Assembly (NCBI GenBank): GCA_964610995.1
Contig: CAZSWF010000002.1
Span: forward strand, 6,338-70,337
Direction of reading: 5' to 3'
Source of the DNA: an uncultured Candidatus Saccharibacteria bacterium
Lineage (GTDB): Bacteria; Patescibacteriota; Minisyncoccia; Phycocordibacterales; UBA9973
DNA length: 64,000 nt
Shown: positions 15,028-64,000 of the stretch, one piece after another
Numbering within the stretch: the first letter of the stretch is position 1
How the letters are laid out: every line of letters begins with the position of its first letter
Position numbers and translations under genes: made by a program
The notes under the pieces: generated by a model
Told to the model about the DNA's origin: nothing
Database searches by the model: none
The model's input: the letters and a program-made list of their open reading frames with translations, nothing else

Positions 15028-15028
15028 G

Positions 15029-15784: not shown

Positions 15785-15807
15785 CATACATCCCTCACAT
15801 GAGGGAT

Positions 15808-16254
15808 TTATTGTTGGACTATATCTATAGTAAATGTAGAGTGGTAGCCGTCATCAGCGACATCAATACGGTACTGCCCTACTTTCTTGATCGGACCGTT
15901 CTGTACCGTCATAAGCTTGGGATCAAGTGAGATACGGTGCGCGGACATAAGGTAGGCTGCAACGTCGCTCGTATCTATTTTTGAAAACAAGTTACCTTGA
16001 TCGTTGGCCTTGACCGGCATAGTAACAGCAAGGTCTCGCACGGTGTTGATAGCTTCATCAAGTAGCTTGTGGTGCAGAGCTCGCTCACTGACCATGCTTG
16101 CCTGACGACGTTTGAGCTCACCAAGCGCTTTTTCGGTAGCAAGAATTGCAAGTTTTTTTGGAAAAAGTGAATGCTCAGCATAGCCTTGTGCGACATCGAC
16201 AACGTCATACTTTTTACCTACTTTTTGTACATTTTGTTTAAGAATAACTTTCAT
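15808..16254 (-). CDS. rplI: 50S ribosomal protein L9
   Basis: MKVILKQNVQKVGKKYDVVDVAQGYA...GNLFSKIDTSDVA matches the L9 N- and C-domain pattern. Confidence 0.85.
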   Translation of the reverse strand: MKVILKQNVQKVGKKYDVVDVAQGYAEHSLFPKKLAILATEKALGELKRRQASMVSERALHHKLLDEAINTVRDLAVTMPVKANDQGNLFSKIDTSDVAAYLMSAHRISLDPKLMTVQNGPIKKVGQYRIDVADDGYHSTFTIDIVQQ

Positions 16255-16266
16255 ACAAGTGCTTAA

Positions 16267-41270: not shown

Positions 41271-41342
41271 GGCCCTATCGTCTATCGGTTAGGACGAAAG
41301 CTTCTCAAGCTTTAAAGCCGGGTTCGATTCCCGGTAGGGTCA
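41271..41342 (+). tRNA. tRNA-Glu (anticodon CTC)
   Basis: Manual fold: acceptor GGCCCTA/TAGGGTC (one G-U), D-arm GTCT-ATCGGTTA-GGAC, anticodon stem AAAGC/GCTTT with loop TTCTCAA (CTC), T-arm CCGGG-TTCGATT-CCCGG, discriminator A. Confidence 0.75.
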
Positions 41343-41458
41343 CAGATTTTAAATACTTATTTATCAAGTTATTTTAAGACACCCGAATACATGTTCGGAA
41401 CTTTGTAATAAAAAACCACCCTTTTCCAAGAGCGGTTTCTCGTTTTTACTTGTTTTGA

Positions 41459-42475
41459 TTACAACGATTTTTCAAGTTCGATGAGCTTTTTAACTCCATT
41501 ATAAAGTTGCTCATAAATCTCACGTTCAGTTACCCCTAAACGACGTTTGTTGGAAATGTCGTAAATACCATCTGAAGACTCAGAATGCTCTCCGTGTACT
41601 CCACGGATCGAAAGTCCTAAATCTTTGCATACTTCATTGAAGTTACCCGAAGCAGAAAGCTTAGGAATTCTGATATGCACAGACGCGCGCATTGCTGTTC
41701 CAAGATTGGTTGGGCAAGTTGTGTGGTAGCCACGAACATCATCAAATGCGAAGTTAATCTTTTCATTGATGAAGTTGAGCGCAGTTGCGAGCCGTGTAAA
41801 GACTTCGGCAATGTCAGCTCCTGGCTGCATGCTAATGATGCGCATACTATCTTCTTCTGAAACCCATACAAGGAATTTCTTGTCATCAGAAAAGAAAATG
41901 CCGCGGTTCTTTGGCCAGTCACGGTTTACACCTGCACTTTCCAAGAAACGGTCACCCTGTTTGAACAAGAAGTGATCTTCCACCATTTTTGCACGAACTT
42001 CTTCACTCATGCCATCAAGGGGGAAATATTCACCCTTCAATGCTCCGGGAAGCTGTTTTAATGCTTCAATAATTTCAGACTCCATAGCAGCTCGATCTTC
42101 GCTGGAAATAGCTGAAGGAAATGCGTACTTCGCAAAATTGCGACCAACACGGATACGGGTGGATACCACATAATTACCCTCAGGATCCAAATTTTCAACA
42201 GGAAGCCCAGTGAGCGAAAAATCACTTTTGTGACCGCTCATATCATAATGGTGGTATTCCTTGATAATTGGATCAAGAAGTGGCGAAAGCATGGTATAGG
42301 ACTCAGGATCACCTGCGTAGATGCCAATACTCGAATCTGGATTATCAATACCAGATTGAATTGCTTTTTGTAGTGTCCAGCCATGTGGTGTTACTACGTT
42401 TTCTAACTGCATTTTCACTACTTCACTGTAGTGTTTTTTCATTAACATGTCGGGGTTTGTTGTAATTTCTGTCAT
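41459..42475 (-). CDS. arginine kinase (eukaryote-type phosphagen kinase)
   Basis: CPTNLGTAMRASVHI active-site signature. GIYAGDPESY...LDPIIKEYH, FLFKQGDRFLESAG...RGIFFSDDKKFLVWVSEEDSMRIISMQ and RGVHGEHSES...DISNKRRLG closely parallel invertebrate arginine kinases, not McsB. Confidence 0.85.
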   Translation of the reverse strand: MTEITTNPDMLMKKHYSEVVKMQLENVVTPHGWTLQKAIQSGIDNPDSSIGIYAGDPESYTMLSPLLDPIIKEYHHYDMSGHKSDFSLTGLPVENLDPEGNYVVSTRIRVGRNFAKYAFPSAISSEDRAAMESEIIEALKQLPGALKGEYFPLDGMSEEVRAKMVEDHFLFKQGDRFLESAGVNRDWPKNRGIFFSDDKKFLVWVSEEDSMRIISMQPGADIAEVFTRLATALNFINEKINFAFDDVRGYHTTCPTNLGTAMRASVHIRIPKLSASGNFNEVCKDLGLSIRGVHGEHSESSDGIYDISNKRRLGVTEREIYEQLYNGVKKLIELEKSL

Positions 42476-42544
42476 AAGAACAATAGTTTACTGTGAATTT
42501 TTAAATAATACTATCTTATAAGGCTTTTTTGTCAATTACACAAC

Positions 42545-42571
42545 AAACCCCCGTTTTGTGAACGGGGGTTT
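42545..42571. terminator. GC hairpin (terminator-like)
   Basis: AAACCCCCGTT-ttgtg-AACGGGGGTTT, lying downstream of the minus-strand ORF 42578-42895. Confidence 0.5.
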
Positions 42572-42577
42572 CATGAT

Positions 42578-42895
42578 TTAGGGTTTCTTTTTTCTGAGAT
42601 CGTAATAATTACTAATTTTAATGAACTCTATTTCTCCCTCCCAGTCCATATTTTTCAAAATCTCATGTACTTTGTGAACAATAACGTATTCACTACTAAA
42701 AAGACGAAGAAATGGTCGATCATCTTTTTGTGTACCCACAACCTTTGCGGTGATTTCAGAAAAAGTAAGATTTTTGTAATCATCTGGAGAAAGAATCTTT
42801 TCGAGCTTCTCCGATAGTTGATCTTTCAATTTCATAAATTCGGAATGAACATACCCATGAAATTCAATCAATGGGGAGTAACTGTTTTTCTGCAT
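42578..42895 (-). CDS. hypothetical small protein
   Basis: 105-aa ORF flanked on both sides by similar G5/C5 hairpins. Confidence 0.4.
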   Translation of the reverse strand: MQKNSYSPLIEFHGYVHSEFMKLKDQLSEKLEKILSPDDYKNLTFSEITAKVVGTQKDDRPFLRLFSSEYVIVHKVHEILKNMDWEGEIEFIKISNYYDLRKKKP

Positions 42896-42968
42896 AGTTT
42901 AATTTTCATAGAACTATAGTGCTTTTTGCACTAATGTCAAATAACACGTTCTACTGACTAGATAAAAC

Positions 42969-42993
42969 AAAACCCCCTGTATAAGGGGGTTTT
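42969..42993 (-). terminator. rho-independent terminator for the upstream minus-strand gene
   Basis: AAAACCCCC-tgtata-GGGGGTTTT. On the minus strand it is followed by GTTTTATC. Confidence 0.6.
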
Positions 42994-43012
42994 AAATGAT
43001 AGAAACAATGTA

Positions 43013-43420
43013 TTACATTGCTTCTGCATAGGTAGGTTGCAACGGCTTTTTTTCTTTGGGGTTCAAAGTATGCAGTACGCCAGGCTTGGGTTGATCGATC
43101 AATCGTTCGATTTTTTGCTCAAGCATTTTTACATCAGCAAACATGAACTTTTGTCTTTTGGCATACTTGTGCAGTTCGTCGCGCAGTTGTACCGACTGTC
43201 TTTTGTGCTCTGACATATCAGCAAGTACAAATGCAGTAACCATTCGTTCCTTTTTCGCAGTGATTGCAATATCAATAATCATTGCTGTAAAAACACATAC
43301 GATGCAGGTCACAAAAATAGGACCATCGAGGCTCTGGTACGCGAGATATCCAGTCAACATACTTCCTACAGCCACCAGGGGTGTATGGAGGGCAAGCAAT
43401 CGAAAGATTCTTTTTTTCAT
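43013..43420 (-). CDS. hypothetical small membrane protein
   Basis: 135 aa with two N-terminal TM helices and a charged C-terminus. Confidence 0.4.
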   Translation of the reverse strand: MKKRIFRLLALHTPLVAVGSMLTGYLAYQSLDGPIFVTCIVCVFTAMIIDIAITAKKERMVTAFVLADMSEHKRQSVQLRDELHKYAKRQKFMFADVKMLEQKIERLIDQPKPGVLHTLNPKEKKPLQPTYAEAM

Positions 43421-43545
43421 AATTTCAAATAAGGGGTTTAAGGTTTGTTTTCTCTATAATATCATACTATACACATATGTCAAGTATCCCCTCCCCGACC
43501 TTTTGACAATGGCTCAAAATCAAGTACAGTAAAGAAAAAAAGCTC

Positions 43546-44007
43546 ATGGAAAATCAAATAGAAAAACCTGTATACGAAACAGAGTCTGCTATTCTTTCTT
43601 TTTCAGGAAGTGGCAACTTTTTCCTTTGTGATGACTATGCTGCACCAATCAAAGTAGGTAGTACGGTGTACCCATCGGTACGTGCTGCGGTGGTTGCTCA
43701 CAAAACTAAAAATCACCGTATAAAAGCAAAGATTCGCAACGCAATGACTGCTATGAATCTCAAAGAAATAGAACGAAGTATCCCTGCCCCCTCACACTGG
43801 ACCAAAGAGTACATCATTGGCAAAATGACTGAGCTTACGATGCAAAAGTTTCTCAAACACCCAGAACTTAAAAAACGATTTCTCGCTACAAAACCAAAGT
43901 GGCTAACAAACCAAACCGAACCGACACTTCAACGATTGGAGATCGACGAAGTATGCGACGAACAAACATATGCAGACATCCTGATGAATGTTCGTGAACA
44001 ACTGTAA
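43546..44007 (+). CDS. NADAR/YbiA-like (DUF1768) domain protein
   Basis: FLCDDYAAPIKVGSTVYPSVRAAVVAHKTKN...HWTKEYIIGKMTELTMQKFLKHPELKKRFLAT is consistent with the NADAR N-glycosidase family. Confidence is moderate. Confidence 0.5.
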   Translation: MENQIEKPVYETESAILSFSGSGNFFLCDDYAAPIKVGSTVYPSVRAAVVAHKTKNHRIKAKIRNAMTAMNLKEIERSIPAPSHWTKEYIIGKMTELTMQKFLKHPELKKRFLATKPKWLTNQTEPTLQRLEIDEVCDEQTYADILMNVREQL

Positions 44008-51892: not shown

Positions 51893-52186
51893 CTACACTT
51901 TTGCTATTACTTCTTGTGCAAGCAATGCACGCTTTGCACGAGGACCGCCGCGGTTGTACTCTCCGACGCTTCCATCAGAACGAACCACGCGGTGACACGG
52001 CACAGTTGGATCGTAGTTACCTTTCATCACTGTCCCCACAGCACGAGCAGCGTTAGCATTCCCAGCTTTCTTTGCAACTTCTGCATAGGTCATCGTCTTG
52101 CCTTTTGGGATCTGACGCACAACATCACGCACCTTATCTGCAAATGATTTCACGTGCGCATTATTTGACGATCGGGTGTGGGACAT
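51893..52186 (-). CDS. MGMT-family protein (O6-alkylguanine-DNA alkyltransferase DNA-binding domain)
   Basis: TYAEVAKKAGNANAARAVGTVMKGN...PCHRVV contains the PCHRV active-site motif. Confidence 0.8.
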   Translation of the reverse strand: MSHTRSSNNAHVKSFADKVRDVVRQIPKGKTMTYAEVAKKAGNANAARAVGTVMKGNYDPTVPCHRVVRSDGSVGEYNRGGPRAKRALLAQEVIAKV

Positions 52187-52460
52187 TGAGCACTTCTTTG
52201 AAAAATGTCACGATCACAGTATTTTCACCTTCGGTGATGAAGTCGGTGTTGAAGGTACAGTTATAAGCGACAGTTTGGCGATACCCAAATGCAACTTTGG
52301 TAAAACTCAGGTCATCGATCGAAAGGTTGCAGCCTTCTTGGAGTGTGGACTGACTTTCGTACACTTTGTTGTAGATCAGCTGACGAGCATCTGCAGGCTC
52401 AAACCATGGACACCATGCAACAATAATAAGTCCTACAACTATAAGTGCGAAAAATGCTTT
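52161..52460 (-). CDS. hypothetical small membrane-anchored protein
   Basis: Probable start MKAFFALIVVGLIIV. About 100 aa. Confidence 0.35.
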   Translation of the reverse strand, partial: KAFFALIVVGLIIVAWCPWFEPADARQLIYNKVYESQSTLQEGCNLSIDDLSFTKVAFGYRQTVAYNCTFNTDFITEGENTVIVTFFKEVLNVPHPIVK

Positions 52461-52641
52461 CATATAAGTACTAGTATAGCGCACTAGTAGAAATGGCACC
52501 AAGTTTCGTGTGGACTCCAGTATGGTTTTTGTAAACCAGATAGCTAAGGAATTGGAGTATCTGGCTTGGGTACTAAAAGGAGATTATGAGAAAAGTGTCT
52601 AAATTACTGTCGGTACTGTCTTTAGTGTCTAGATATTAAAA

Positions 52642-52665
52642 AGCCCCTTCAAGAATGAGGGGGCT
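52642..52665 (-). terminator. rho-independent terminator
   Basis: AGCCCCTT-caagaatg-AGGGGGCT. On the minus strand it is followed by TTTTTAATAT, downstream of the 52689-54539 gene. Confidence 0.65.
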
Positions 52666-52688
52666 GTATAAAGAACTTCTTCTAATTA

Positions 52689-54539
52689 CTATTTACCAAA
52701 GTTGGTAATTCGACGTCCTAAGTTGTTTACTGGATTTTCAAGTATGGCAGGCTTTGCCCATACACCAGAAATCAATCCTGTATTTGCGGTCTTGGACTTC
52801 GTGATTCTTTGTTTTAGGAAAAATGGTTCAACCTCTACGTTGTAAAAACTAGCGGCCGCACTATCCATTTCGGAAAGCTTCCTATAAGCAAGAAGAACAT
52901 GTTTAGTGCTCCCGATGGAAATAGCTGACCGAAGCATTGCTGCTAATATCGCAAGAGATTTTATATTGCCCTGATCTAACCATTCACATAAAGATTTGTA
53001 TTCCCCATAGTGAAGCAGTTTTGCGGCCTTTCTCTCTTCTGCGATTCTTAATTTTTCAACCTCAGTTGTCGCTGTTTTAAAAGTTCCAAGTAGGTTAAGT
53101 TTTTTCTGTAAGAGACTAAGCCGATTCAAATCCTTTTCCTCTGTAGGTACAAATTCTGAATAGAACTCGAGTGATCTTACTGTCAATTCACATTCCTTTG
53201 TCTGTAGGGCTACTAAATCCTTTTGAATCTTTTCAACTGCCCGAAGAATGGTGTCGTGATACTCTAGAAAAAGTATCCTTTCTAGCACAACCTTAACAGC
53301 GTATTCATTTTTAGTTTTCATCGCACGACAAAGGAGACTGGAAAGGACGTTAGCAGATGTTGTTTTTGCAACACTGTGTTTAATCATTGCTTCTATCTCA
53401 GTATCGGAAGAAAAAGATCCTTGCTTGAATAAGCCATAAAGTACATCACGGTCGAAGGGTTTAATCGTATATGCCTCTTTACAGGACTTGATAAGGGCAG
53501 GATGCCGATAATCTATCGTAAGCGCCTTTCTACAATCCTCAAGCCTTTTTGCCAACCAGATCGGTCTGTCTTTAAACAGCATAATTTCAAGATTTGGAGG
53601 AACTTCAAAACCACTAATCGCGGCCATTCTATTGAATAGGACTTTTGAATTAACCTTTTGTACTAACCACCACAAAATGAGAGATTCTGTCTGAGAATTA
53701 TTTTTCCCTTGGCAATACAAGCACATTGGTACAAAAGTTGTTAAAGAGCCTCTCTCTACTAACCTCTGTACATCATTGGCTATAATTTTTTTATACCGCT
53801 TCTCGAATGTCTCAGCTGTATCAACAGCCCAGGCAACATCTTCCCGAACAAACGGTATTTGAAATATATCCTTTTGACCCTCATTTTCTAAAGAAGAAAA
53901 ACAGGTTGAAAATATAATTTCAGCTATTTCTCTTTCTCCTAGGTACAAGTAGTACCAGTAAAATGAGAGTAAAAGGTTTCTGCACCCGTATTCAAGGAGT
54001 TTTGATGTAAGGGCAACAAGACAATCGGTTCTCTTTTCATCTTTGGTTCTTAAACAAAAACGATACATTGCATCCCATGCTACCCACTGCCAGCTACTTT
54101 TGCGAGCTTTAACCGCAATTACTTTTTCAACAAATTGCAGTTGCTGGTCATTAATGGGCCACATTCTTTTATGAGCAAGAAGGAATACAATTGTTGATTC
54201 CACACCTTTGTCTAATACATATAGAGTGATCATATCTTCATAGGTGGAAAAGAAATAGGGTTCATTTTCAATTTTATTGAAGAAATCACTTTCTTTATAA
54301 GCATGAATTTCTTTAGCCCTTTTTGTATTTATCTTGCATCCTGTTAAATCTTCAATGAGGGATAAGCGCTCAGCCCCCATTAAATCACGGTGATAACACA
54401 AAACTATAAATGCTTCCGTGTTTTTACCTTCTTCGATAAGCGATTTTGCTTTGGAAATAATTCCTTGTTCATCCGATGTACCGATTTCTAAATCGGACAT
54501 CCTGTTGGATTGATTGGCGAAACGTGTCTTTTTCTCCAT
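52689..54539 (-). CDS. large hypothetical protein (616 aa), AT-rich island gene
   Basis: Long uninterrupted ORF of low GC, predicted helical, with no recognisable catalytic motif. It is the last gene of a three-gene minus-strand operon. Confidence 0.5.
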   Translation of the reverse strand: MEKKTRFANQSNRMSDLEIGTSDEQGIISKAKSLIEEGKNTEAFIVLCYHRDLMGAERLSLIEDLTGCKINTKRAKEIHAYKESDFFNKIENEPYFFSTYEDMITLYVLDKGVESTIVFLLAHKRMWPINDQQLQFVEKVIAVKARKSSWQWVAWDAMYRFCLRTKDEKRTDCLVALTSKLLEYGCRNLLLSFYWYYLYLGEREIAEIIFSTCFSSLENEGQKDIFQIPFVREDVAWAVDTAETFEKRYKKIIANDVQRLVERGSLTTFVPMCLYCQGKNNSQTESLILWWLVQKVNSKVLFNRMAAISGFEVPPNLEIMLFKDRPIWLAKRLEDCRKALTIDYRHPALIKSCKEAYTIKPFDRDVLYGLFKQGSFSSDTEIEAMIKHSVAKTTSANVLSSLLCRAMKTKNEYAVKVVLERILFLEYHDTILRAVEKIQKDLVALQTKECELTVRSLEFYSEFVPTEEKDLNRLSLLQKKLNLLGTFKTATTEVEKLRIAEERKAAKLLHYGEYKSLCEWLDQGNIKSLAILAAMLRSAISIGSTKHVLLAYRKLSEMDSAAASFYNVEVEPFFLKQRITKSKTANTGLISGVWAKPAILENPVNNLGRRITNFGK

Positions 54540-54617
54540 GTTTTTATTTTTTTGTAAGTGAACAATTTTATATCGACTTTATACTACATTGCATATTTAA
54601 TATGTCAATGTCATCAG

Positions 54618-55088
54618 TTACTGAACTTTGCTTCTAAACACTTCCAGGAGAAAAGGTATTTTATCTTTTAGAATGTTTATATTATTACCTATGTCGTTTA
54701 CCTTATCACTCATACCTGAAAGAATTGTAGTAGTTTCTTTTTGTTTTACTTCCAAGACTTCAATTTTATCCCCATGAGAATAGACTAAATAGCCCATCCA
54801 AACTAAAGCTGCGATTGCCGCCACAATAAGGCTAACAAAAATATTACTTAACAGATTTTCAAAACCAAATGCATCTCTTAGTCTCAAACGAAAAGGTTTC
54901 TTTGTCTTTCTACTTTTTTGAGGCTTTTTTTCCTCCTCAAAATTTGAAGAATCAGTTGTATCAACAGTATTAAATTTCTTTTCAGTTGTTTCTAAACCTG
55001 AAGATTTTAATAAAAAACGCTTATATGCATTTTTCTCATAAGGAGTTTTTCCTACATGTTCAGATCTAATGTATCTACTATTTTTCAT
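54618..55088 (-). CDS. hypothetical single-pass membrane protein
   Basis: 156 aa with a basic N-terminus (KPQKSRKTKKPFRLRLR), one TM segment (IFVSLIVAAIAALVWMGYLVY) and a coiled C-terminus. Confidence 0.45.
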   Translation of the reverse strand: MKNSRYIRSEHVGKTPYEKNAYKRFLLKSSGLETTEKKFNTVDTTDSSNFEEEKKPQKSRKTKKPFRLRLRDAFGFENLLSNIFVSLIVAAIAALVWMGYLVYSHGDKIEVLEVKQKETTTILSGMSDKVNDIGNNINILKDKIPFLLEVFRSKVQ

Positions 55089-55776
55089 TTTCGTTAAAAA
55101 TCCAAGGATAATACTTATTATCTAAGTATGAAATAGCATCTTTTATAAAAGCTTCTGTATCGCAGTCTCTTAGATCGTAGAAACTTGGATCATAGTAATA
55201 TTGGAAATCCAAATTTGCTTCAAACTTACCATCTTTTATTTCAGTAAAATTATAAATATAATTTTTGAAATCGTTTACATTTTTTCTATAAAGAGATTCT
55301 TTACTCTCTTCTTTTGATGAGAATGTTAAGTTTATGTTCTGAGCTTTATTTATTTTTGAGTTTGTAATTAATGGTATAACTGCTTTGAGTTTTTCTATAT
55401 TTGAAACTTCATGTCCAAAAATAACACCTATTCTGCTAATATTAACTAGCTCAAATTTTCTAAAAATGTGCTCTTTTAAATAAGGCAATACCTTATCGTT
55501 TAGGAATTTTATTTTTGTATCAAAATTACCTTCGACTTTCAATTTTATAATTAAATCATCTGTATTGATTCTAATATATTCATCTGTTTCAGTATTATAT
55601 AAGATTCTTTCTCGAAGATTGGTATCTCGAACCTCTGGGAACATTTCTGCTCCAAATGGCGACTCTTCGTCGTACAAAATATGGTCTATAATCCTTCCAG
55701 CCTCGTCTCTCAAACGAAAAGATCTCGAATGTCGTATACCTAGAATAACTGAAGTTATGTCCTTTTTTAGATTCAT
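55078..55776 (-). CDS. hypothetical protein (232 aa)
   Basis: AT-rich ORF whose stop overlaps the next gene's start by about 10 bp, with no motif I can assign. Confidence 0.45.
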   Translation of the reverse strand: MNLKKDITSVILGIRHSRSFRLRDEAGRIIDHILYDEESPFGAEMFPEVRDTNLRERILYNTETDEYIRINTDDLIIKLKVEGNFDTKIKFLNDKVLPYLKEHIFRKFELVNISRIGVIFGHEVSNIEKLKAVIPLITNSKINKAQNINLTFSSKEESKESLYRKNVNDFKNYIYNFTEIKDGKFEANLDFQYYYDPSFYDLRDCDTEAFIKDAISYLDNKYYPWIFNENEK

Positions 55777-56046
55777 AGTTAGAGCTTAATATATCATTAG
55801 TATCAAAAATGTCCATGGGGAAGCTTAAGTTGCAATGGTTCCAATTCCCCGAAGGCATTACGTTCGATGGAAAGGATTATGGAACCGTACAAACAGCAGG
55901 TGTTTTCAAGACAAAAGAGGCATTTCTGCCCCTTCAGTCTTCTACGGTGGACTTGGGAGTTCAATTTTGGAACAGATTTGCTGTGGAGTGTCAATATCTT
56001 GTCCATATTATGCGTGAATACAATGCTGACTTGAAAAGATAAAAAA

Positions 56047-56520
56047 CTACCTCCACTGCGTATCACTATTCTTTATGTCTCTCAAGGTCTTCCAGCTCAT
56101 CTCTTCAACACCGCCCGCACGGTCCACGAAAAAAATATAGAGGTTCAATTTATCCATCACATCAAATGGCATTTTTCTCAAGACCATCTTCTTAAATGAA
56201 ATTGGAAAAGCTACACCGTATTTATAGCCGTATTTGTACCCACGCTTGCCGTTGCGGTGCATTCTTGTAATGATTTGTCCTACGGCTGAATTGAAACAGC
56301 TACTCATACTACCAGCGGGACTTTTTACGATAATTGATGGGTCGCCCTTTGCCTCAATCAACCAATAGCGAGAAAAGTTATCGTTTCTGACTTTGATGTC
56401 TACACCCTGTTCCCAGAGTTCGGCATTTCGCAGTGAAGTACTCCATCCTTTTCTCTTCAAATACGCAACCACGTTTTTTTGCACAAAGCTCTCTGTAATT
56501 ATTTCTCGTGTAGCCTTCAT
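56047..56520 (-). CDS. putative PD-(D/E)xK nuclease-fold protein
   Basis: GVDIKV...YWLIEAKG has the spacing of a D...ExK restriction-endonuclease-like core. It is 17 bp downstream of the RT gene on the same strand. Confidence 0.4.
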   Translation of the reverse strand: MKATREIITESFVQKNVVAYLKRKGWSTSLRNAELWEQGVDIKVRNDNFSRYWLIEAKGDPSIIVKSPAGSMSSCFNSAVGQIITRMHRNGKRGYKYGYKYGVAFPISFKKMVLRKMPFDVMDKLNLYIFFVDRAGGVEEMSWKTLRDIKNSDTQWR

Positions 56521-56536
56521 ACTCTCTTTTATAGCA

Positions 56537-57655
56537 TTAGGACATACTCTTCACCAGCTCTTTGACTTCGCTTGTGATTTTCTTGGCATTGCCATGACTT
56601 AATAATCCAAGATAGGACTGCACGGTCTCCTCTTTTGCACCCATCTCCGCGATACGCTTGTACATGCGACGCTTGGTCACGGTCCGCACCGCACGATGGT
56701 CTGGAAAGTGGACCCATCCAAGGAAATCAACGCCCGAGGCGAGCGTCTTTATGAAAACTTTATCTGGATGTAATAAAAGTTTTAACTTTTCTTTAAGAAA
56801 AATTGATATTTTCGGGAGAATACCCTCAAGTACCGCTTTGTCATCGGACAGGAATACGAAATCATCGGCATAGCGGATGTAGTGCTTCGCTTTGAGCGTA
56901 TGCTTCACGAACTGGTCAAACTCGTTCATATAGATATTGACCAAGAGTTGTGAGGTAAGGTTGCCAAGCGGCAGTCCTCTCCCTTTTTGAGTTGAATGAA
57001 AACTGCCAACAATTTCAGCCAAGAGTTCTACGATGTCCTTGTCTGCGATAGAACTTTTAATGATGTTCAACAGGATGTCGTGGTCCACCGATGCAAAGAA
57101 CTTCCGTATGTCGCATTTCAAAACCCAGACAGTGCGTGTGTCATTCTTTGAGACCTTGTAGGACAGAGTACGAAACCGCTGCATTGCCTTGTGGGTGCCT
57201 TTGTTTTGTCTGCAAGAAAATGAGTCAGCAATAAATGTGTGGTCAAAAAATGGATAGAGCTGACGATACAGTGCGTGGTGCAACAATCGGTCCGCAACGG
57301 ACGCCTTGTGAATGTTTCGCGGTTTCGGGTCAGAAATGTTGAACGCTTCGTACGATGAGTGTCGGTATGTTTTCGCTACAAGCGTGCGGTGCAGAGCGAT
57401 GACGTTGCCCATCAGATTTCTTTCAAATAGCAAAACATCTTTTCTTGATTTTTTACCCGACACAAACTCTTGCCACGCAAGGAGGAGGTTTTCGAGAGAA
57501 ATGATATGCTCGTAGCTATGAATAAACCGAGTCCGAGCAATACAATGACCATCACCCCCCCCCGACAATTTTGCCCGTGCTTCAAAAGCTGAAAACTGTC
57601 TATATTCATTGGTATGGATATTATCACGAACTCCCCAAGACACACCGCCACTCAC
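56537..57655 (-). CDS. diversity-generating retroelement reverse transcriptase
   Basis: RT motifs include IRYADDFVFL (YADD box). LPLGNLTSQLLVNIYMNEFD is the DGR-type [ILV]GxxxSQ motif, replacing the QGxxxSP of group II introns. A 9-nt G-run lies in the 5' region, and the start is uncertain. Confidence 0.85.
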   Translation of the reverse strand: MSGGVSWGVRDNIHTNEYRQFSAFEARAKLSGGGDGHCIARTRFIHSYEHIISLENLLLAWQEFVSGKKSRKDVLLFERNLMGNVIALHRTLVAKTYRHSSYEAFNISDPKPRNIHKASVADRLLHHALYRQLYPFFDHTFIADSFSCRQNKGTHKAMQRFRTLSYKVSKNDTRTVWVLKCDIRKFFASVDHDILLNIIKSSIADKDIVELLAEIVGSFHSTQKGRGLPLGNLTSQLLVNIYMNEFDQFVKHTLKAKHYIRYADDFVFLSDDKAVLEGILPKISIFLKEKLKLLLHPDKVFIKTLASGVDFLGWVHFPDHRAVRTVTKRRMYKRIAEMGAKEETVQSYLGLLSHGNAKKITSEVKELVKSMS

Positions 57656-57918
57656 TCGGAGTACGCATTGATACGCTGTTCATAGAAATAATGGAGTCAA
57701 TCGCCGTGGCAAGTTTTCTCGCTCGTATTGAAAAACAACCCTATGTACGGATTGCTATACGAAAAATTGATACGCTCAAAGTACTCATGATGGTGCTTTG
57801 GGAAACGAAGTCGCTCGATGACAAGAAGTACATCGCACTGTCGGTACAAATCGAAGAAATCGGGAAGATGCTCGGCGGCTGGAACGGGCAACTCACAAAA
57901 CAAAACTCTCCCAACTAA
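57571..57918 (+). CDS. DGR accessory variability determinant (Avd, four-helix-bundle protein)
   Basis: LPKTHRHSLGVRIDTLFIEIMESIAVASF...IALSVQIEEIGKMLGGW parallels Bordetella phage Avd (PRKHGVAREMF...AEVGRILGSWIA). It starts at TTG 57571 or a later ATG, on the strand opposite to the RT and TR. Confidence 0.65.
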   Translation: MPVLQKLKTVYIHWYGYYHELPKTHRHSLGVRIDTLFIEIMESIAVASFLARIEKQPYVRIAIRKIDTLKVLMMVLWETKSLDDKKYIALSVQIEEIGKMLGGWNGQLTKQNSPN

Positions 57919-57945
57919 TAAAAGTTGAGAGAGAAATGAAGAGAG

Positions 57946-58069
57946 TTGCCGAGAGAGCAGCAGGGTTGTTGCCATTGAAGTCATTGCTCAACCAGTTGTT
58001 GCTCCAGTTCCACTGACCATCGTTCCAATACAGGTAACGGACATAGAGGTTGTCGTCAGAGTTGCGGTT
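57946..58069 (-). repeat. DGR template repeat (TR)
   Basis: 124-bp repeat. Versus the copy at 58434-58557, every one of the 19 mismatches falls where this copy has A on the minus strand, so this is the adenine-bearing template. The first 20 bp are identical in both copies (IMH-like GC-rich end). Confidence 0.85.
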
Positions 58070-58428
58070 ATGTATGGCGTGCCATCCATTCCACCATCCT
58101 TTGAATACTCTCGGGATTGTATCGTATCTGTGATAGTAATCACCCAGCACGTCATACCAAGTATCTTCAATTTTTTGAAGTTTCTACATACACCACCCTA
58201 TCTGAAGCCGTGACCGCAGATATTCTCGATGTATGGATACTAGCTTCGGCAGTCGGAAGCCGTAACCGCCGTCATATTCGCCAGAAGCCGTTCTCATGGT
58301 ATCACAAAAAAATAACCCCTATATGAAAAATATAGGGGTGAAGATTTGTAAAACCTTCAAAACTTTTTTATCGCGAACAAAGGACAAAGGGTCACAGCTC
58401 ATAGAGCACAGTGTTCGAGGGTATAGTA

Positions 58429-59019
58429 CTAACTTGCCGAGAGAGCAGCAGGGTAGTGGCCATAGAAGGCATAGCTCAACCAGCGGTTGCTCCAGAGCCA
58501 CTGACCACCGTCCCAATACAGGCAACGGACACAGAGGCGGCCGTCAGAGTCGCGGTAGATGGTCCCCCAGAAGAAAATATATTTTCCTTTCCATTCTTCA
58601 GGAATGGCTTTGGGGTTCGCCAATAGGTAGTCCAATACATTTGCGTTCAGTACTTTCTTGCCTTTTAATTCTTCACGCAGTTTGTTGCCTTCGATGCTAC
58701 CGTTCTTCTGTTTCTTGGAGAGATAGAGTTCAACTTTTGAAGCGTCAAACTTAATGTTGCCGTTCTTTTGGTGTTCCTCTACTTTCCAACAACTTGGAAT
58801 GAATGGTGCTGCATCGCAGTCAATAACGTGTTCAATGCCTTTTATTTCGTGGGTGCCGCGTAGCACACCGAGGACCAATTTCATCAGATTTTCATCTTTT
58901 GAAAAATCGTCCATGTTTTTTGGTTCCCAGCCTACTTTTGCGGCTGAAAGGGTAACTTCCCCCATGAGGGTACAGCTAAACTCATTTGATTTTGCCATTG
59001 TTTTAGGTTTGTGACACAT
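58429..59019 (-). CDS. DGR target protein with C-terminal variable (C-type-lectin-like) region
   Basis: 196-aa ORF whose last roughly 40 codons are the VR, with no obvious signal peptide. The start may be the internal MAKSNEF. Confidence 0.75.
   Translation of the reverse strand: MCHKPKTMAKSNEFSCTLMGEVTLSAAKVGWEPKNMDDFSKDENLMKLVLGVLRGTHEIKGIEHVIDCDAAPFIPSCWKVEEHQKNGNIKFDASKVELYLSKKQKNGSIEGNKLREELKGKKVLNANVLDYLLANPKAIPEEWKGKYIFFWGTIYRDSDGRLCVRCLYWDGGQWLWSNRWLSYAFYGHYPAALSAS
58434..58557 (-). repeat. DGR variable repeat (VR) at the 3' end of the target gene
   Basis: This is the counterpart of the TR. TR Asn/Tyr/Asp codons (AAC, TAC, GAC) correspond to R/C/L/Y/H/G/A codons here: TR-encoded NLYVRYLYWNDGQWNWSNNWLSNDFNGNNPAALSA becomes RLCVRCLYWDGGQWLWSNRWLSYAFYGHYPAALSA. 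It ends 2 nt before the stop codon. Confidence 0.85.
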
Positions 59020-59199
59020 CCGCTTTTTGCGGACTCATCGGTGAAAAAATGTATTAAAGAACTGATAGTATTATAGCACCATTTCGTTATATAGTCAATA
59101 AACCCTTATTCCCCTATGCCGAGAGCAAAAAGCCGCGTGTAGCACCGCAGCTCTCCGCTGATAACCGTATTCTTTTGTTGAGGTTGAGATAGTAAAATC

Positions 59200-60546
59200 C
59201 TAGAAATTAGTAAGTAGTGATAAAATCCTTTTCTGTACCTCACTACTTGGAATGGTGGACTCATGGTAACAGTCGTCCTTTTCCGAGAACACAACAAAGT
59301 CCGTACCATCGAATGTATTGATTGGTATCCAAAAAAACCTATCAACAGGGTCGTGACGGTCAATGGCGACACTCACACCAAGAATATAGTCATAATTTTT
59401 CATGTACCCTTTGATGGTGAAGCACCAGTTTGCAACGCCGTCCACTGTGAAGCGTGCCCCAATCGCCATCGGCAGTTTCCTGACTGCCATGTCAGCGTCG
59501 TCAATTTCCATGCCGTTACTCATAAGAAGAGCAGAGATTTCCGTCTGAAGACCACGTCTTGCTTTTCGCACAGCGTATGCACCCTTTTGCCATTTGGTGG
59601 GCATGAGCCAATACAAGCGGTCTTGGGCAGCGTTGAACATCTCCGAAGAAACGATACCTTCAAATGCGTTCGGTTGGATGACCCACTCACTTCGCGGATT
59701 GCGACGGTGCTTCTGTTTCAATCGACCCCATGTCTTGTTGTAGATACGGGTACCAGTGTATATCTCGTTCGTGAGGACATGGAGTACACCAATAGACTTC
59801 CATGTTTTGCCCTGTGCAGTGAGAACGCCCCGTGCGTTCAGTATCTCTGCGATTGTCTGGGGTGACTCCCATTTCTCCACTAACAGCTCGTACATTTCTT
59901 TGACTACCTCACTCGTCCCGTCATCGGCAGGGGCGAAGGTGACACGCTCATTTGAGATTGATTTCCACTCTCCCTTTTTGAGCTTTCGCAACGGCTTCTT
60001 GTCTACGTCGAGGAGCATACGTGTCATGCCAAACGGAGGTTGACCTCCTGCTGAAAACCCTTGCTCGGATACTTTGACACAGCCATGGAACACCTTGCCA
60101 CTCAACTGACGAGAGTATTCAGCAGCCATATAGCGACCAATGGATGTCTGAAGTGTAGAAATGAGCTGTTCATCTTCTTTGGGAAATCCCTGCGAGACGT
60201 ACACGACTTTCTTCCCATTCTGCTTACAAGTGTATTCGTAGTGAGCAGCCTCGTTCTGGTCCTGAAATCGTCCCCAACGGGATACATCGTAGACAAAGAC
60301 ATAATCGAAGGCAGGAGCAAAAGGGTTCTTAATCCAATCATCAAACAGACGTTGAAAAGCAGGTCGGTCCGCCGATAACCCACTTTCTCCCTCATCAGCT
60401 TCCTCATGGATGATTTCGATGTTATGCGTCTTTGCAAATGCTTGCGTATGTCCCTGCTGAATAGCAACCGAGTTCTCTTGCTTGTCCTTTGCGGAGTGAC
60501 GATAGTACGCCACGCCTGTCTTGCGTATCGGTTCTGATATAGACAT
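59200..60546 (-). mobile_element. large serine recombinase (integrase)
   Basis: The N-terminal resolvase catalytic domain (AYYRHSAKDKQ with the catalytic Ser, FDYVFVYDVSRWGR), a recombinase domain and a Cys/His-containing C-terminal region are typical of large serine integrases. Confidence 0.8.
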
Positions 60547-60548
60547 GG

Positions 60549-61424
60549 CTAGACAATTTTAATCGTCTTTCTAATAAGAGCTTGAAGTTGAACGAGAGAT
60601 GCTTTTTCGTTCTTCGTGAAAGATGTGCCATTCTCTTTCTTTTTCGTAATCTTCTTGATGAGGTCGCCGCACATGAGGGCAAATCCCGTCTGGCGTGTCC
60701 GTAGCTCAAGCTCATTTGCAGTCATGGGTATTTTTATCAAGAACTCATGGAGCTCGTCCTCATTGATTGTCGCCTGCATAAATACCTTACCAATCTTTCG
60801 TATGTCGAGTGACTTGGTGATGACCTTTTTCTCAATTTTTGCAAATATAATCGAAATAATATCGTCGACCTCGAGTTTTTTGATTTTCTGAAGTTTCTTA
60901 AACAGGTTGAGCATTGCCATACGAACACTCCTTGGTACGTCGTAACGCTCCATCATTGTCAAGTTCGATATTCTTTGTTTTCGCATCTGCATGGCAAGCT
61001 GGACCGATGACCTACTCATACCGAGATAATCTGCAAGCTCGTGATTACTCTTGAACCCATAGGAGTACTTGATACGCTCCAGAGCTTCAGATTTTTCTAA
61101 CGGGTTCCATGCACGACGATTATTCTGCATTTCATATCGTCGTGTCTCAAACTCACCGTCCGTCATCTTGGGGTAGATACGACACGGCACATGTTTCATT
61201 CCTAACTTCTGGGCACAAATAAATCGACGATGACCGTCGATTATGATGTAACGTTTTTCCGCTATCTGACTTACTTTGATTGGCTCTTCAATGCCATAGT
61301 TTTTAATCGACAGTTTGAGCTTGTTCTTCTCGGCTTCGACTCCGAAGTCTTGTCTCGGTTGATTTTGGTCTCGCTGAACTTGTCCAATAGGTAACTCTGC
61401 AAATATGAACTTTGGTTTTAGCAT
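60549..61424 (-). CDS. ParB/Srx-like nuclease domain protein
   Basis: IGQVQRDQNQPRQDF...LSIKNYGIEEPIKV...IIIDGHRRFICAQKLG is the ParB N-terminal domain signature. It lies 3 bp upstream of the serine recombinase. Confidence 0.7.
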   Translation of the reverse strand: MLKPKFIFAELPIGQVQRDQNQPRQDFGVEAEKNKLKLSIKNYGIEEPIKVSQIAEKRYIIIDGHRRFICAQKLGMKHVPCRIYPKMTDGEFETRRYEMQNNRRAWNPLEKSEALERIKYSYGFKSNHELADYLGMSRSSVQLAMQMRKQRISNLTMMERYDVPRSVRMAMLNLFKKLQKIKKLEVDDIISIIFAKIEKKVITKSLDIRKIGKVFMQATINEDELHEFLIKIPMTANELELRTRQTGFALMCGDLIKKITKKKENGTSFTKNEKASLVQLQALIRKTIKIV

Positions 61425-61643
61425 ACACTTTTACTTTTTTGTGTTATTTAATAATTCCGAAGAAAGAAGTTCCGTGCAAAAGACGGGACCGCGGTCAACG
61501 GATATATTAAGTAGCCCTCTCCGTGTTTTAGAGATAGTGTCTTTTTTCAAAATATATTCATATTAACATTTTGCCCCACTGTGCTCATCACTATATCTAT
61601 GAGTTTTCTGACATCGTAGCAACCCTGTTATCAGGTTTATTTC

Positions 61644-62153
61644 TTATTGATTTCGGAACTTTTTCTGTAATCGAATAAGTGTCTTGTTAATTCCTACTGC
61701 CGCAATCCATGAAATAATCCCTGCAAACAAAATATCAATCAGGAAATCCCGAACGAGCATGAGGACTGGAGCTTCTGATGAGTTAAAAGTTGCAGGCCAT
61801 ACCCATGTATAGCTATTAGCAGTAGCCACTGTTTCTGATAATACATATCCTAGTGCAATGTTTATTCCAACAATCATGAGTACGAGTGAAAGGGTGTATG
61901 CGAGCAATTTTGCCATCCGTGCGGACATCTTTGTAAGAGTGGACAGAACATTCAGAGCACTGGTGTAGGTGAAGACTCCAAGGGCCCCAACGACAGCAAC
62001 CATGAACACGATGTGTCCCTGACTGAAGTAAGTGTGACTAGGAACGTTCAAGGTATAGCCGAGCACCTTGAAAAATGGAGGGATTGTTTTTGCAAGAGCG
62101 AGTGCAGGTAAGAGTAACAGGATAAATATATCGAAGGTTTCTATTTTTTTCAT
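61644..62153 (-). CDS. hypothetical polytopic membrane protein
   Basis: 169 aa with about 5 TM segments and AT-rich sequence. Confidence 0.4.
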   Translation of the reverse strand: MKKIETFDIFILLLLPALALAKTIPPFFKVLGYTLNVPSHTYFSQGHIVFMVAVVGALGVFTYTSALNVLSTLTKMSARMAKLLAYTLSLVLMIVGINIALGYVLSETVATANSYTWVWPATFNSSEAPVLMLVRDFLIDILFAGIISWIAAVGINKTLIRLQKKFRNQ

Positions 62154-62161
62154 GATAATTT

Positions 62162-64000
62162 TTATATAGTGGTTAAAGTTTTAATCGTTTCAAAAAGTTC
62201 TCTTTGACGCTCTTGTAGATGAGCATCAAAGATGACTTTATACTCAAAATCCTTGTTTATTTTTTGAAAATCAAGGAAACCAAGTTCTTTGGCGTACACG
62301 TCGTTGAAGAGTGATGTGACGGTTCCGTCATAGCGTTTCTTATTTGCCTCGTATTCCGTCTTTTCGGACCCTGATTTCACTTCCAGCACCAAGAACCTTC
62401 CTTTGTCAGTTTCTATGAGGAAGTCTGGGAAGTATTTTGATATACGTTGTTCTGTGGGGTTCCAGTACTCAACATAGAAATCGTTGTGAGCATCAGTGGT
62501 GACACCTCCAGTGAAGTAGACATCCTTAATAGTTTCGTTGGTTGTCAGAAATTGGCGGAATTGTCGGAAAAGGTCCCGTTCGTCACTACTGTCGAAGTTG
62601 TAGGGGTTGATATGAAAACCGAGGCGACTTGTTGCTCCGTCCGTCTCTTCTTTTTCCTTGAAGATGACGAGTGCTTTTTTACCTTCCTCCTTGCTCATTT
62701 TGAAGGGATACTCCTTGGTGAGCTCGATTTCTTCCTCTGTTGTTGTCTCGGTCTCCGTATACTGATAAACAGTTTCAAGAACAGTTTGAATGATGAATGG
62801 GAGGAACCCCACACTCGTATTCACTTTATCTACTAACTCACTCCTAGATAATCCGATATTTTCCGATAATTTACTTACCGAAAGGCATGGCAAATGGGTA
62901 TAGCGGTTTATGAGCTCAACGATTTCATAGTAGGTATATGAATTGGTCTCTTTGATTTTCTTTGAGCCGAGCGTGTCGTGCTTGAGGATTGCCTTGCCAG
63001 AACCATCTATGACAAGCTCCGAGCCCAAGAGATAGTGCTCGTACTTTTCGGCCTTGTACTTCTTAATATCAATCTTAATGTCGCTCGTGTCTCGGGCTTG
63101 GGTTGACACGATGTCTCGGATGAGCTTTTTGACAGTGATAGTCTTTTTCTTTTCAACCTTAATTTCAAACTCAAAGCTCTCTTGTTCTTGGTTGTTGATG
63201 TCTTGGATACTTGAGGCAAAGTTGTTCTTGAGTTCTTTGTCGAGGACCTTGTAGTTCTCTTTGGAGAGGAAGATATGGGCTCGTGTTGAATTATCTCCAA
63301 TGGACCGCATGCAGCGTGTGGACGCTTGGAGCACGAAGATTGAGCTCGATGGCTTGCGGTACAGTGCACACGCGACCAGCGAGCGACAGTTCCACCCTTC
63401 CGTACCCTTACCAACAAGAAGCACGAACTGCTTGGTGCTATCTATCGTATCGAGCGTTCGAAACTCATCCTTGTTATCTTCGGCTTCTGTATGGTACTCA
63501 AGGACCTTATCGAGCGATATATTCATCTCCGCAAGCACTCGCTCAATGCGTGGTTTGAGTTCGTTTCGCAAATTATCAATACTTGGAGCATAGAACGCCA
63601 TTTTGGGCAGACGACCTTCTAGGCGGTTTTCTCCGTACTCGGACCAGAATGTCCCAAGGACTTCTTCAATGAAAACCTCTGAACGAACCTCTCCGAAATC
63701 CAGTATCTTTACCTGTTTCAGAATACCTTTCTCTATGCCTTGTTTGAGCCCGAAATGGTACACAACGTCATCTATCATCCTGTTGTTGATATACGGCGTT
63801 CCTGTGAGGTTTACGACCCCTACGAGAGGTGTATTGCCGTGCAAATAGTCAATCGTCTGACGCGTCTTCTTCAAAGCACCTTCGAGATTGACTCCGTACG
63901 AGTGATGGGCTTCATCAACAAATATGACGAGGTTGTTGAGCTCACGGATTGCTCGGAGGCGTGCGTTCTCTACCTCACGCTTGGCAAGCTCACTCTTATC
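62162..64000 (-). CDS. DEAH-box SF2 helicase with C-terminal PD-(D/E)xK nuclease domain (type III restriction Res-like), 5' end beyond window
   Basis: The frame stays open upstream of the ORF-track TTG start. My translation of 63875-64000 gives ...LNNLVIFVDEAHHSYG (DEAH motif II), followed by NLTGTPY (motif III) and helicase C-domain motifs. The C-terminal PDFLIETDKGRFLVLEVKSG is a PD...ExK core. Confidence 0.6.
   Translation of the reverse strand, partial: DKSELAKREVENARLRAIRELNNLVIFVDEAHHSYGVNLEGALKKTRQTIDYLHGNTPLVGVVNLTGTPYINNRMIDDVVYHFGLKQGIEKGILKQVKILDFGEVRSEVFIEEVLGTFWSEYGENRLEGRLPKMAFYAPSIDNLRNELKPRIERVLAEMNISLDKVLEYHTEAEDNKDEFRTLDTIDSTKQFVLLVGKGTEGWNCRSLVACALYRKPSSSIFVLQASTRCMRSIGDNSTRAHIFLSKENYKVLDKELKNNFASSIQDINNQEQESFEFEIKVEKKKTITVKKLIRDIVSTQARDTSDIKIDIKKYKAEKYEHYLLGSELVIDGSGKAILKHDTLGSKKIKETNSYTYYEIVELINRYTHLPCLSVSKLSENIGLSRSELVDKVNTSVGFLPFIIQTVLETVYQYTETETTTEEEIELTKEYPFKMSKEEGKKALVIFKEKEETDGATSRLGFHINPYNFDSSDERDLFRQFRQFLTTNETIKDVYFTGGVTTDAHNDFYVEYWNPTEQRISKYFPDFLIETDKGRFLVLEVKSGSEKTEYEANKKRYDGTVTSLFNDVYAKELGFLDFQKINKDFEYKVIFDAHLQERQRELFETIKTLTTI

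Follow-up and report, generated by a model that had tools for sequence, protein, structure and literature searches.

Gene content of the locus

We analysed the right-hand end of a 64,000-nucleotide stretch of a Patescibacteria (candidate phyla radiation, CPR) genome, here called the window, where an island starts at position 52510 and continues past the last base (L numbers designate the loci and contigs used for comparison). The island has two adjoining parts, a low-GC segment named E1 (52510-55945), and E2, which extends from 55946 to window-equivalent position ~74309 with a repeat unit of 18,334 bp. The windowed part of E2 holds a 157-aa gene, a diversity-generating retroelement (DGR), an operon of a ParB-domain gene and a large serine recombinase (SerRec448), a predicted membrane protein and part of a Res gene, while its integrase gene, int498, lies beyond the window end. 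A reading made from the letters alone (the sequence-only reading) had recognised the recombinase-ParB operon, the DGR and a Res-like gene cut by the window end, and these identifications hold; its statement that all genes lie on the minus strand does not, as avd and a 77-codon open reading frame (ORF) are on the plus strand. It had also taken the region for a horizontally acquired, site-specifically inserted island, which is borne out by empty sites in relatives, a shared junction core and the spread of the element. We consider it likely that the island is composite, and that it grew as elements integrated site-specifically, one after another, at the 3′ end of a tRNA-Ala(UGC) gene in the Patescibacteria chromosome. 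The features that delimit its parts are the following.

52510-52515: left island boundary with core GTGGAC, the distal junction of E1
55809-55945, plus strand: integrase relic of the int498 type (its last ~46 codons), at the tRNA-proximal end of E1
55809-56042, plus strand: 77-codon chimeric ORF, integrase relic followed by the E2 tail from the core on
55946-55975, plus strand: 30-nt att repeat, GGTGGACTTGGGAGTTCAATTTTGGAACAG, which forms the E2 distal end and has its GTGGAC core at 55947-55952
55947-56042, plus strand: 31-codon tail ORF in the E2 distal (P′) arm

Ends of E2 and its probable tRNA-Ala target

E2 was followed beyond the window in two contigs. L001, a short-read contig of the same population obtained by exact-protein look-up, is 100% identical to window positions 55915-64000 and continues rightward, and L064, also 100% identical in the overlap, extends beyond L001 (59266 is added to an L064 position to give that of the window). 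The terminal 30 nt of L064 are identical to 55946-55975, in the same orientation, and lie right after the C-terminus of int498, 18,334 nt away, with 0 such matches expected by chance. These direct repeats define both ends of E2, and the right boundary is indeed outside the window, as had been supposed.

The probable target is seen in relatives free of the island. In L018, L021 and L023 a tRNA-Ala(tgc) gene is found 170-1100 nt upstream of the small conserved gene or the MGMT gene that border the island in the window, and it is preceded by two conserved genes, i.e. a conserved far flank; L017 also lacks E2. The empty site expected in relatives of an island in a tRNA gene (tDNA island) is thus present, and the block, which would be conserved in all relatives if it belonged to the core, is not. 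In L062 (GCA_964474435.1; the same genome as L022) the interval between the small gene and tRNA-Ala is filled by ~14 kb, comprising a few small genes, Res (91% identical to that of the window), Mod, a TPR protein, DUF5659, primase (85%), three small genes and int498, and past the tRNA-Ala come the same two conserved flank genes as in the empty genomes. In L061, too, the space separating the small gene from tRNA-Ala is taken up by Res-Mod, DUF5659, primase and int498. The backbone of L062 recurs in L061 and L068, which come from different samples and have different flanks, and in all three the 3′ end of int498 overlaps a tRNA-Ala gene that lies on the opposite strand. The junctions read as follows (a double slash marks the junction point).

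Empty site, L023: ...GGGTCCAC // ACGACGAAAAAC (terminator) ...GGGGAAGCCGGAAGTATGT
tRNA-proximal junction, L061, L062 and L068: ...GGGTCCAC // (A/C)TTAG(A/C)AGACTT..., antisense of the integrase C-terminus
Distal junction, L062: ...GTTCCCAAGTCCAC // ATGAAGAAAAAACC (terminator) ...GGGGAAGCCGGAGATATGT

The core GTCCAC (in the direction of the tRNA) is present at all junctions of the element family, and no fewer than 10 of them, drawn from 8 genomes, are precise to the nucleotide at these same 6 bp. Past the core, the L062 distal junction continues with a terminator hairpin and then GGGGAAGCCGGAGATATGT; this DNA is homologous to the sequence right after tRNA-Ala in the empty L023, which places the insertion point at the tRNA 3′ end. 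An intact tRNA-Ala adjoins the element in L061, L062 and L068, and the far junction repeats only 6-8 bp of the tRNA end, with no displaced tRNA fragment of the kind that Islander looks for.

From the core, the tail ORF in the distal arm of E2 carries the integrase reading frame on, with the sequence VDLG(V/T)(Q/H/L)FWN(R/K)FA.EC.YL... on the integrase strand. It is open at equal length in 6 elements (window, L061, L062, L028, L066 and L067, two of them from Joint Genome Institute (JGI) metagenomes), its substitutions by codon position rank third > first > second, and it reads as the natural C-terminal continuation of a putative unintegrated form of int498. For this enzyme an attP and an attB with a short common core adjoining the integrase gene are predicted from the junctions. 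An Rfam scan of 51-64 kb gave nothing above noise, so the conserved segment at 55.8-56.05 kb is not a known RNA.

Elements of the E2 type appear to spread horizontally. Among them Res is 90-94% and primase 85-93% identical, whereas between the L062 host and the window genome the identity of core proteins is only 66-79%. A degenerate DNA pattern search revealed two further E2-type distal ends in JGI metagenomes, which adjoin unrelated host DNA.

Backbone of E2

The E2 genes in the window outside the DGR and the ParB operon are listed here.

56047-56520, minus strand: 157-aa gene downstream of the DGR reverse transcriptase, no family match
61644-62153, minus strand: 169-aa predicted membrane protein (hydrophobic sequence), no family match
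62162-64000, minus strand: C-terminal 612 aa of Res (full length 850 aa), running off the window end

Res has a ResIII helicase domain in its N-terminal part, beyond the window, and a PD-(D/E)xK-like motif at the C-terminus. A Mod protein of 563-580 aa with an N6_N4 methyltransferase domain is encoded immediately upstream of it past 64 kb in L001 and L064, where the sequence-only reading had suggested it might be found, and Mod upstream of a Res helicase-nuclease is the arrangement of type III restriction-modification (R-M) systems. The centre of Mod (window-equivalent 65700-66050, in L064) is non-homologous to L061, L062 and L068, while the copies are otherwise 75-85% identical, consistent with swapped target-recognition domains. 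Past Mod, the divergent genes encode 387- and 315-aa proteins, DUF5659, a primase, 165- and 192-aa proteins and int498. The 724-aa primase has a Toprim domain and a Walker-A-like segment and matches phage primase/helicase PHROGs. The second large serine recombinase, int498, has Resolvase (E 2e-31) and Recombinase domains and a VRVSTKEQ motif, and is 21-22% identical to SerRec448.

PADLOC assigned no defence system past generic matches to the reverse transcriptase. Pfam and PHROGs detected no capsid, portal, terminase, tail or lysis genes among the ~18 genes scanned, and scans of IMG/VR with the primase and int498 returned no relatives, so that E2 has the appearance of an integrative element that is not a phage and may be able to replicate when excised. 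No tyrosine (Phage_integrase) domain was found in E1 or E2, in which the recombinases are all serine enzymes. In L068 the interval from Mod to the 387-aa gene holds, at 7157-7375, an excisionase-like gene of 72 aa (HTH_17/MerR) with no homologue found in the E2 of the window; its product is a candidate directionality factor.

E1, a low-GC segment and probable relic

The left boundary of the island was placed between 52509 and 52510, at a GTGGAC core, where the homology with L003 begins exactly at 52509. It therefore falls in the 52.5-52.7 kb spacer that the sequence-only reading had favoured, although this spacer does not directly follow MGMT, since a small core gene (52161-52502) intervenes. 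E1 contains the following features.

52510-52602, plus strand: E1 island-side arm, a 30-codon tail ORF from the core, resembling the 31-codon E2-type tail
52607-52622, minus strand: two TACTGTC direct repeats, read in the sequence
52640-52668, minus strand: terminator-like hairpin with a T-run, downstream of the 616-aa gene, conserved in L017
52689-54539, minus strand: 616-aa gene, alpha-solenoid, no family
54618-55088, minus strand: 156-aa gene, no family
55078-55776, minus strand: 232-aa gene, no family

The relic arm thus keeps a shorter version of the tail ORF, which is also kept in L017, with substitutions by codon position of 6/3/10, mostly third. At the other end of E1, residues 5-48 of ORF 55809-56042 are 53% identical to the end of int498 (455-505), with E 2e-16 over residues 5-55. 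The closest species, L017 (SIMPL protein 90% identical), has the integrase relic joined directly to tRNA-Ala, as would be expected prior to the insertion of E2, followed by a homologue of the 616-aa protein (26% identical, in the same place) and then by the small core gene, and for this reason the segment 55946-~74309 is taken as an insertion at the tRNA/relic junction. E1 itself appears to be the remainder of an earlier element of the same family as E2.

The hairpin CCAGATA...TATCTGG (52537-52564) and the TACTGTC copies, which the sequence-only reading had pointed out, both exist, and we considered them as an att site. The hairpin lies inside the E1 tail ORF, on the island side, 22 nt from the core, and the TACTGTC repeats lie within a ~40-nt segment that is missing from L017, the closest relative sharing the arm; they were rejected for this role. 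The three cargo genes of E1 have no Pfam, NCBIfam or PADLOC family. The 616-aa family is represented by only 40 clusters among 1.84e9 proteins, and its AlphaFold2 (AF2) model (pLDDT 82) is all-helical, with only generic TPR/HEAT-like alpha-solenoid matches. Short-read contigs of the population (L001, L002, L005) terminate at window positions ~52070-52083 and ~55915-55932, which bracket E1; strain heterogeneity or repeats could be the cause.

Proposed course of integration

From these observations we infer the acting enzyme, the direction and order of events, excision and replication as follows. E1 would be the decayed older element, which kept low-GC cargo, its distal arm and the last ~46 codons of its integrase. 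E2 would be the younger one, intact-looking, with a backbone of int498, three small genes, the Toprim primase-helicase, DUF5659 and the divergent type III Mod-Res, and with a variable cargo slot that here holds the membrane protein, the ParB/SerRec448 operon, the complete DGR and the 157-aa gene; both Mod-Res and the DGR would be cargo. Given its primase-helicase, E2 probably replicates once excised. The predicted role of int498 is to join the attP of the element to the 3′ end of tRNA-Ala by recombination at (R)GTCCAC, the short core that both have in common. This attP would consist of the integrase 3′ end, the core and the 31-codon tail, so that the attachment site lies inside the 3′ coding end of int498 itself. 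Integration would leave the tRNA intact and move the tail to the far end of the element, the integrase gene then reading into the tRNA in antisense. Each newcomer at the tRNA would displace the older element outward, by accretion.

Several points weigh against this interpretation. The choice of int498, most likely the integrating enzyme, is based on adjacency and co-occurrence, and Pfam detects no zinc-ribbon or coiled-coil domain in either int498 or SerRec448 (divergent versions could escape). As serine integrases are not known to act at tRNA genes (PMC4383910), the prior for such a target is low. The view of E1 as a relic element relies on the similarity of ~46 codons together with the core and the arm. 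Neither tRNA-Ala nor a tRNA/int498 junction is seen in the genome of the window itself, where the int498 end of the population joins the distal arm of E2 and not a tRNA; this attP-type junction was read from the terminal 30 nt of one short-read de Bruijn contig (L064) and fits either an excised circle or a tandem copy. Finally, the strain nearest to that of the window, L003 (96.7% identity in the core), has no tRNA-Ala at this place and carries a NUDIX gene with a GC-rich spacer where the island would be (L003:1-690), an arrangement that neither simple insertion nor simple excision accounts for; synteny with L003 stops precisely at the att core, a position suggestive of site-specific rearrangement. 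A search with the right-flank core protein gave no member on the contig that carries the primase of the window genome, and the best candidate for the right flank of that genome, P0264, was rejected, being from another sample.

A more speculative extension, which we think unlikely, is that the integrase has two alternative C-termini, the 31-residue tail (VDLGxxFWNxFAxECxYL...) when excised and a 20-residue tRNA-Ala-antisense peptide when integrated. The exchange of tails would then act as a state sensor that sets the direction of recombination, the ParB pair would serve the excised self-replicating form, and the attP-type junction would be that of a free circle.

The ParB/SerRec448 pair

59200-60546, minus strand: SerRec448, large serine recombinase, Pfam Resolvase and Recombinase, YRHS motif, weak CcrB/CcrC similarity
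60549-61424, minus strand: ParB_N and helix-turn-helix (HTH) protein; operon promoter and leader reach 61486

SerRec448 starts 2 nt after the ParB stop. The ParB protein has ParB_N (E 1e-14), TIGR00180 at 66.9 bits (cut-off 58.45) and a DGHRR motif, and shows the N-terminal GxRR plus HTH layout expected of the family. Domain scans revealed no ParA-like gene anywhere in E2; parS sites were not searched for. Homologues of SerRec448 at ≥50% identity are numerous in Patescibacteria and Bacteroidota, and the ParB gene directly precedes them in five of five independent neighbourhoods (window, L007, L008, L012 and L015), L008-L011 being counted as one context because their DNA is identical. An apparent inversion between the two recombinases in L008-L011 was dismissed, as the sequences are identical and the differences are due to gene calling. 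ParB and recombinase diverge in parallel across the neighbourhoods, and nucleotide homology among the contexts (L007, L008, L009) covers exactly 59203-61486, i.e. the two genes and a ~60-nt leader, at 76-80% identity.

The pair is always found 0.6-13 kb from another site-specific recombinase, which is int498 in the window, a Zn-ribbon serine recombinase in L007, L008 and L012, and a tyrosine integrase in L015. The members of this third, Zn-ribbon family are 62-85% identical to each other and 23% to int498. No terminal or att-like repeats were found around the pair or around the segment specific to the window relative to L061 (56007-61583: the 157-aa gene, DGR, SerRec448 and ParB), and thus no attP/attB can be assigned to SerRec448. 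The E2-type elements of L061, L062 and L068 lack the pair, yet have the same kind of site and the same ends. This absence, the confinement of homology to two genes and a leader, and the recombinase nearby indicate a separable module, and SerRec448 is probably an accessory recombinase, not the island integrase.

The pair is most likely one of two things. It may be an accessory module for maintenance or recombination, for instance for multimer resolution together with partition, our best guess being that it maintains an excised primase-encoding replicon through resolution and ParB-type DNA handling, or it may be a module captured from another element family. We found no description in the literature of a ParB/large-serine-recombinase pair in CPR, and the conservation of this gene pair deserves to be flagged. 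An IMG/VR scan with the recombinase gave one distant match, L006, and nothing more. On this high-GC contig (L006:754-4123) two ParB-like genes come after a serine recombinase that shares 41% identity with SerRec448, an arrangement by which the recombinase-ParB linkage reaches well beyond Patescibacteria.

The diversity-generating retroelement

The DGR is complete and canonical, with reverse transcriptase (RT), Avd, template repeat (TR), variable repeat (VR) and target gene.

56537-57655, minus strand: RT, RVT_1 E 1e-24, LGNLTSQ and YADD motifs, start codon uncertain
57571-57918, plus strand: Avd, NCBIfam DivGenRetAVD E 1.6e-17 and Pfam bAvd E 1e-9; 5′ end overlaps the RT ORF 5′ end
57946-58068, minus strand: TR, 123 nt
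58429-59019, minus strand: DGR target gene, 196 aa
58434-58556, minus strand: VR, in the 3′-terminal part of the target gene, ending 3 nt short of its stop codon

The Avd assignments score below the cut-offs of both models (NCBIfam 63.7 bits against a curated 80; Pfam bAvd 39.4 bits against 40). TR and VR, compared over 123 nt, differ at 17 positions, all of which (17/17) are adenines in TR. A strong promoter-like site (11/12 match) is located at 59098-59070 by the target gene. The VR of L001, the sole other copy, is identical to that of the window. With respect to a C-type-lectin fold of the VR domain, the target protein has no PDB sequence match, and its single-sequence AF2 model has a pLDDT of 37. 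A G8 homopolymer lies at 57553-57560, where the 5′ ends of the divergent avd and RT ORFs overlap, and could be prone to slippage. A DGR with Avd arranged as in the window is also present in L007.

Alternative explanations

The simplest alternative is the one that the sequence-only reading had put forward, a single island from 52.5 to >64 kb integrated by the ParB-coupled SerRec448 of the window. This enzyme does have the catalytic and Recombinase domains of large serine recombinases, with weak CcrB/CcrC similarity, and the occurrence of its family at ≥50% identity across Patescibacteria and Bacteroidota suggests mobility. However, the att-type junction (55946-55975) and the integrase relic divide the island internally at 55.8-56.0 kb, into E1 and E2; relatives of E2 with the same target and ends do without SerRec448 and ParB, and it is int498 that overlaps tRNA-Ala; and the pair has no flanking att-like or terminal repeats, its conserved DNA being limited to two genes and a leader with another recombinase always nearby. 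A single SerRec448 island is accordingly very improbable; the recombinase visible in the window is probably a decoy, the island itself being real. A smaller role for the same enzyme would be that the pair, perhaps together with the DGR, forms a nested cassette in the E2 cargo slot that moves by means of SerRec448. The window-specific segment relative to L061, exactly 56007-61583, would agree with this, as would the occurrence of the pair in five unrelated neighbourhoods with 76-80% nucleotide identity limited to 59203-61486, and the DGR of the same type that L007 has a few kb from the pair. Yet the cassette has no recognisable ends, and the L007 DGR is inverted and 5 kb off, its RT only 57% identical to that of the window against 90-94% for the pair, so that DGR and pair did not travel together recently. 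Three other contexts combine the pair with the conserved Zn-ribbon serine recombinase of the third family, which points to larger elements, and we judge the nested cassette unlikely.

Two further explanations would do without a plasmid-like integrative element. E2 could be a prophage or phage satellite, since its primase-helicase matches phage primase PHROGs, genes for ParB-like proteins, methyltransferases and serine integrases are common in phages, and DGRs were first found in phages. The scan of ~18 genes for virion and lysis functions and the IMG/VR searches with primase and int498, both empty, count against it, and known tailed prophages do not resemble an 18-kb element with a type III R-M system. 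A phage origin is improbable, though a satellite is conceivable. Least credible of all is that there is no site-specific element and that homologous recombination and gene flux have formed a hypervariable defence island in the chromosome. Upstream of the small core gene the content changes in nearly all relatives, and the variable slots of E2 and the Mod target-recognition region differ too, but such flux would hardly yield breaks precise to the nucleotide at one 6-bp core in 10 or more junctions of 8 genomes, an integrase gene abutting the tRNA each time, a 30-nt direct repeat, and the same backbone in hosts with different flanks. Serial integration at tRNA-Ala remains our preferred explanation.

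Comparison with known systems

Tandem site-specific islands at a structured-RNA gene are well known in kind. The nearest analogue is the ssrA-GI family of Dehalococcoides, in which tandem genomic islands downstream of tmRNA carry a CcrB-like serine recombinase and a ParB-domain protein, some members being degraded and without integrase (McMurdie et al. 2011, PMC3146451). Both systems accumulate in tandem at one structured-RNA gene (tmRNA there, tRNA-Ala here), with a large serine recombinase at the edge proximal to the RNA gene, and the ParB-domain gene of the ssrA-GI recombination module would be the closest precedent for the pair described here. In contrast, the core here is 6-8 bp and not a 20-bp repeat, and counterparts of the small second recombinase DsiA, of RecF and of Mom are missing; ParB is coupled to a second large serine recombinase that is dispensable to the element family, and both the host phylum and the cargo (DGR, type III R-M) differ.

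For tDNA islands as described with Islander/TIGER, serine integrases are stated as not known to target tRNA genes (PMC4383910). The island shares with them the insertion at the 3′ end of an intact tRNA, the tRNA-proximal integrase, and the tandem arrays with damaged members, but theirs are tyrosine integrases with a tRNA fragment of tens of bp, whereas here a serine enzyme shares ~6 bp. The large serine integrase, the 6-8-bp core and the attachment site in the integrase 3′ coding end thus depart from the usual tDNA island, and the island adds a probable case of a large serine integrase at a tRNA gene, a target held to be the preserve of tyrosine integrases. The short, defined attP and attB predicted here would be useful for mining serine integrases as tools.

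Staphylococcal cassette chromosome (SCC) elements, moved by ccrAB/ccrC, are likewise non-phage, non-conjugative cassettes that depend on large serine recombinases, of which weak CcrB/CcrC matches are found here. Replication genes (helicase/primase) are found in SCC elements as well. Their insertion site is rlmH and not a tRNA gene, and there is no sequence relationship past the superfamily. With plasmid stability modules the pair shares a ParB_N/HTH protein translationally coupled to a serine recombinase on a primase-encoding element; it differs in the absence of a ParA ATPase and in having a large recombinase with a Recombinase domain instead of a small resolvase, and neither a parS nor a res site was identified (no search was made for parS). 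The order mod then res, the N6_N4 methyltransferase and the ResIII helicase with a C-terminal PD-(D/E)xK-like motif are those of type III R-M systems, with the one peculiarity that the central (target-recognition) part of Mod is non-homologous between copies.

DGRs of CPR bacteria (clade 2) are described as almost entirely cell-encoded, and their targets as short, without recognisable domains (Roux et al. 2021, PMC8144416). The copy in the window resembles them in its LGxxxSQ RT, Avd, adenine-specific TR/VR changes and short domainless target, but is located in the cargo slot of an integrative element, with Avd on the opposite strand between TR and RT. The element family offers a vehicle for the spread of CPR DGRs, and it carries defence (type III R-M) and hypervariation (DGR) between species whose core proteins are 66-79% identical. 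Mobile elements of Patescibacteria are poorly catalogued, and this family recurs in at least 6 genomes or metagenomes with ends defined at the nucleotide level; we found no later description of such islands for CPR in the literature.

Host, composition and neighbouring genes

The host assignment agrees with a scan of species-representative genomes for the neighbouring SIMPL protein, which gave 44 loci, all in Patescibacteria (Paceibacterota/Nomurabacteria/Minisyncoccia labels). The genes on the left of the island (two PBPs, SIMPL, MGMT and the small 100-aa gene, in this order) are syntenic in every close relative, MGMT and the small gene being so with the SIMPL and PBP genes in >12 related species; beyond the small gene the content varies in almost all relatives. 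The two genes closest to the island, both outside it, are:

51893-52186, minus strand: MGMT-like gene, Pfam DNA_binding_1 E 4e-28, core flank
52161-52502, minus strand: small conserved core gene (100/113 aa), between MGMT and the spacer

A gene for a secreted protein of ~255-290 aa lies between MGMT and the small core gene in L003 (1102-1908), with equivalents in L019, L021 and L023, and is absent from the window and L017.

The core of the window has a GC content of 0.462. E1 (52510-55945) has 0.347, against 0.462 ± 0.016 in core windows of equal size (minimum 0.415), whereas 55946-64000 has 0.443, within the core range for 8-kb windows (0.461 ± 0.010, minimum 0.434). The AT-richness noted by the sequence-only reading for the whole stretch is therefore strong in one third of it, 52.5-56.0 kb, and weak in the rest. 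Tetranucleotide usage is atypical throughout, its correlation to the core being 0.26 at 53-56 kb and 0.49-0.61 at 56-64 kb (core windows 0.81 ± 0.06).

Elsewhere in the window, a patch at 41271-44007 has a GC content of 0.37-0.40 and adjoins tRNA-Glu(ctc). It includes a 338-aa phosphagen (arginine/creatine-type) kinase (41459-42475) with both ATP:guanido phosphotransferase domains (E 1e-72), alongside a weakly toxin-deaminase-like gene and a NADAR gene, and may be a second small island. Tetranucleotide usage is also atypical at 13000-17000 (correlation 0.64-0.66 to the core), where the GC content is normal.

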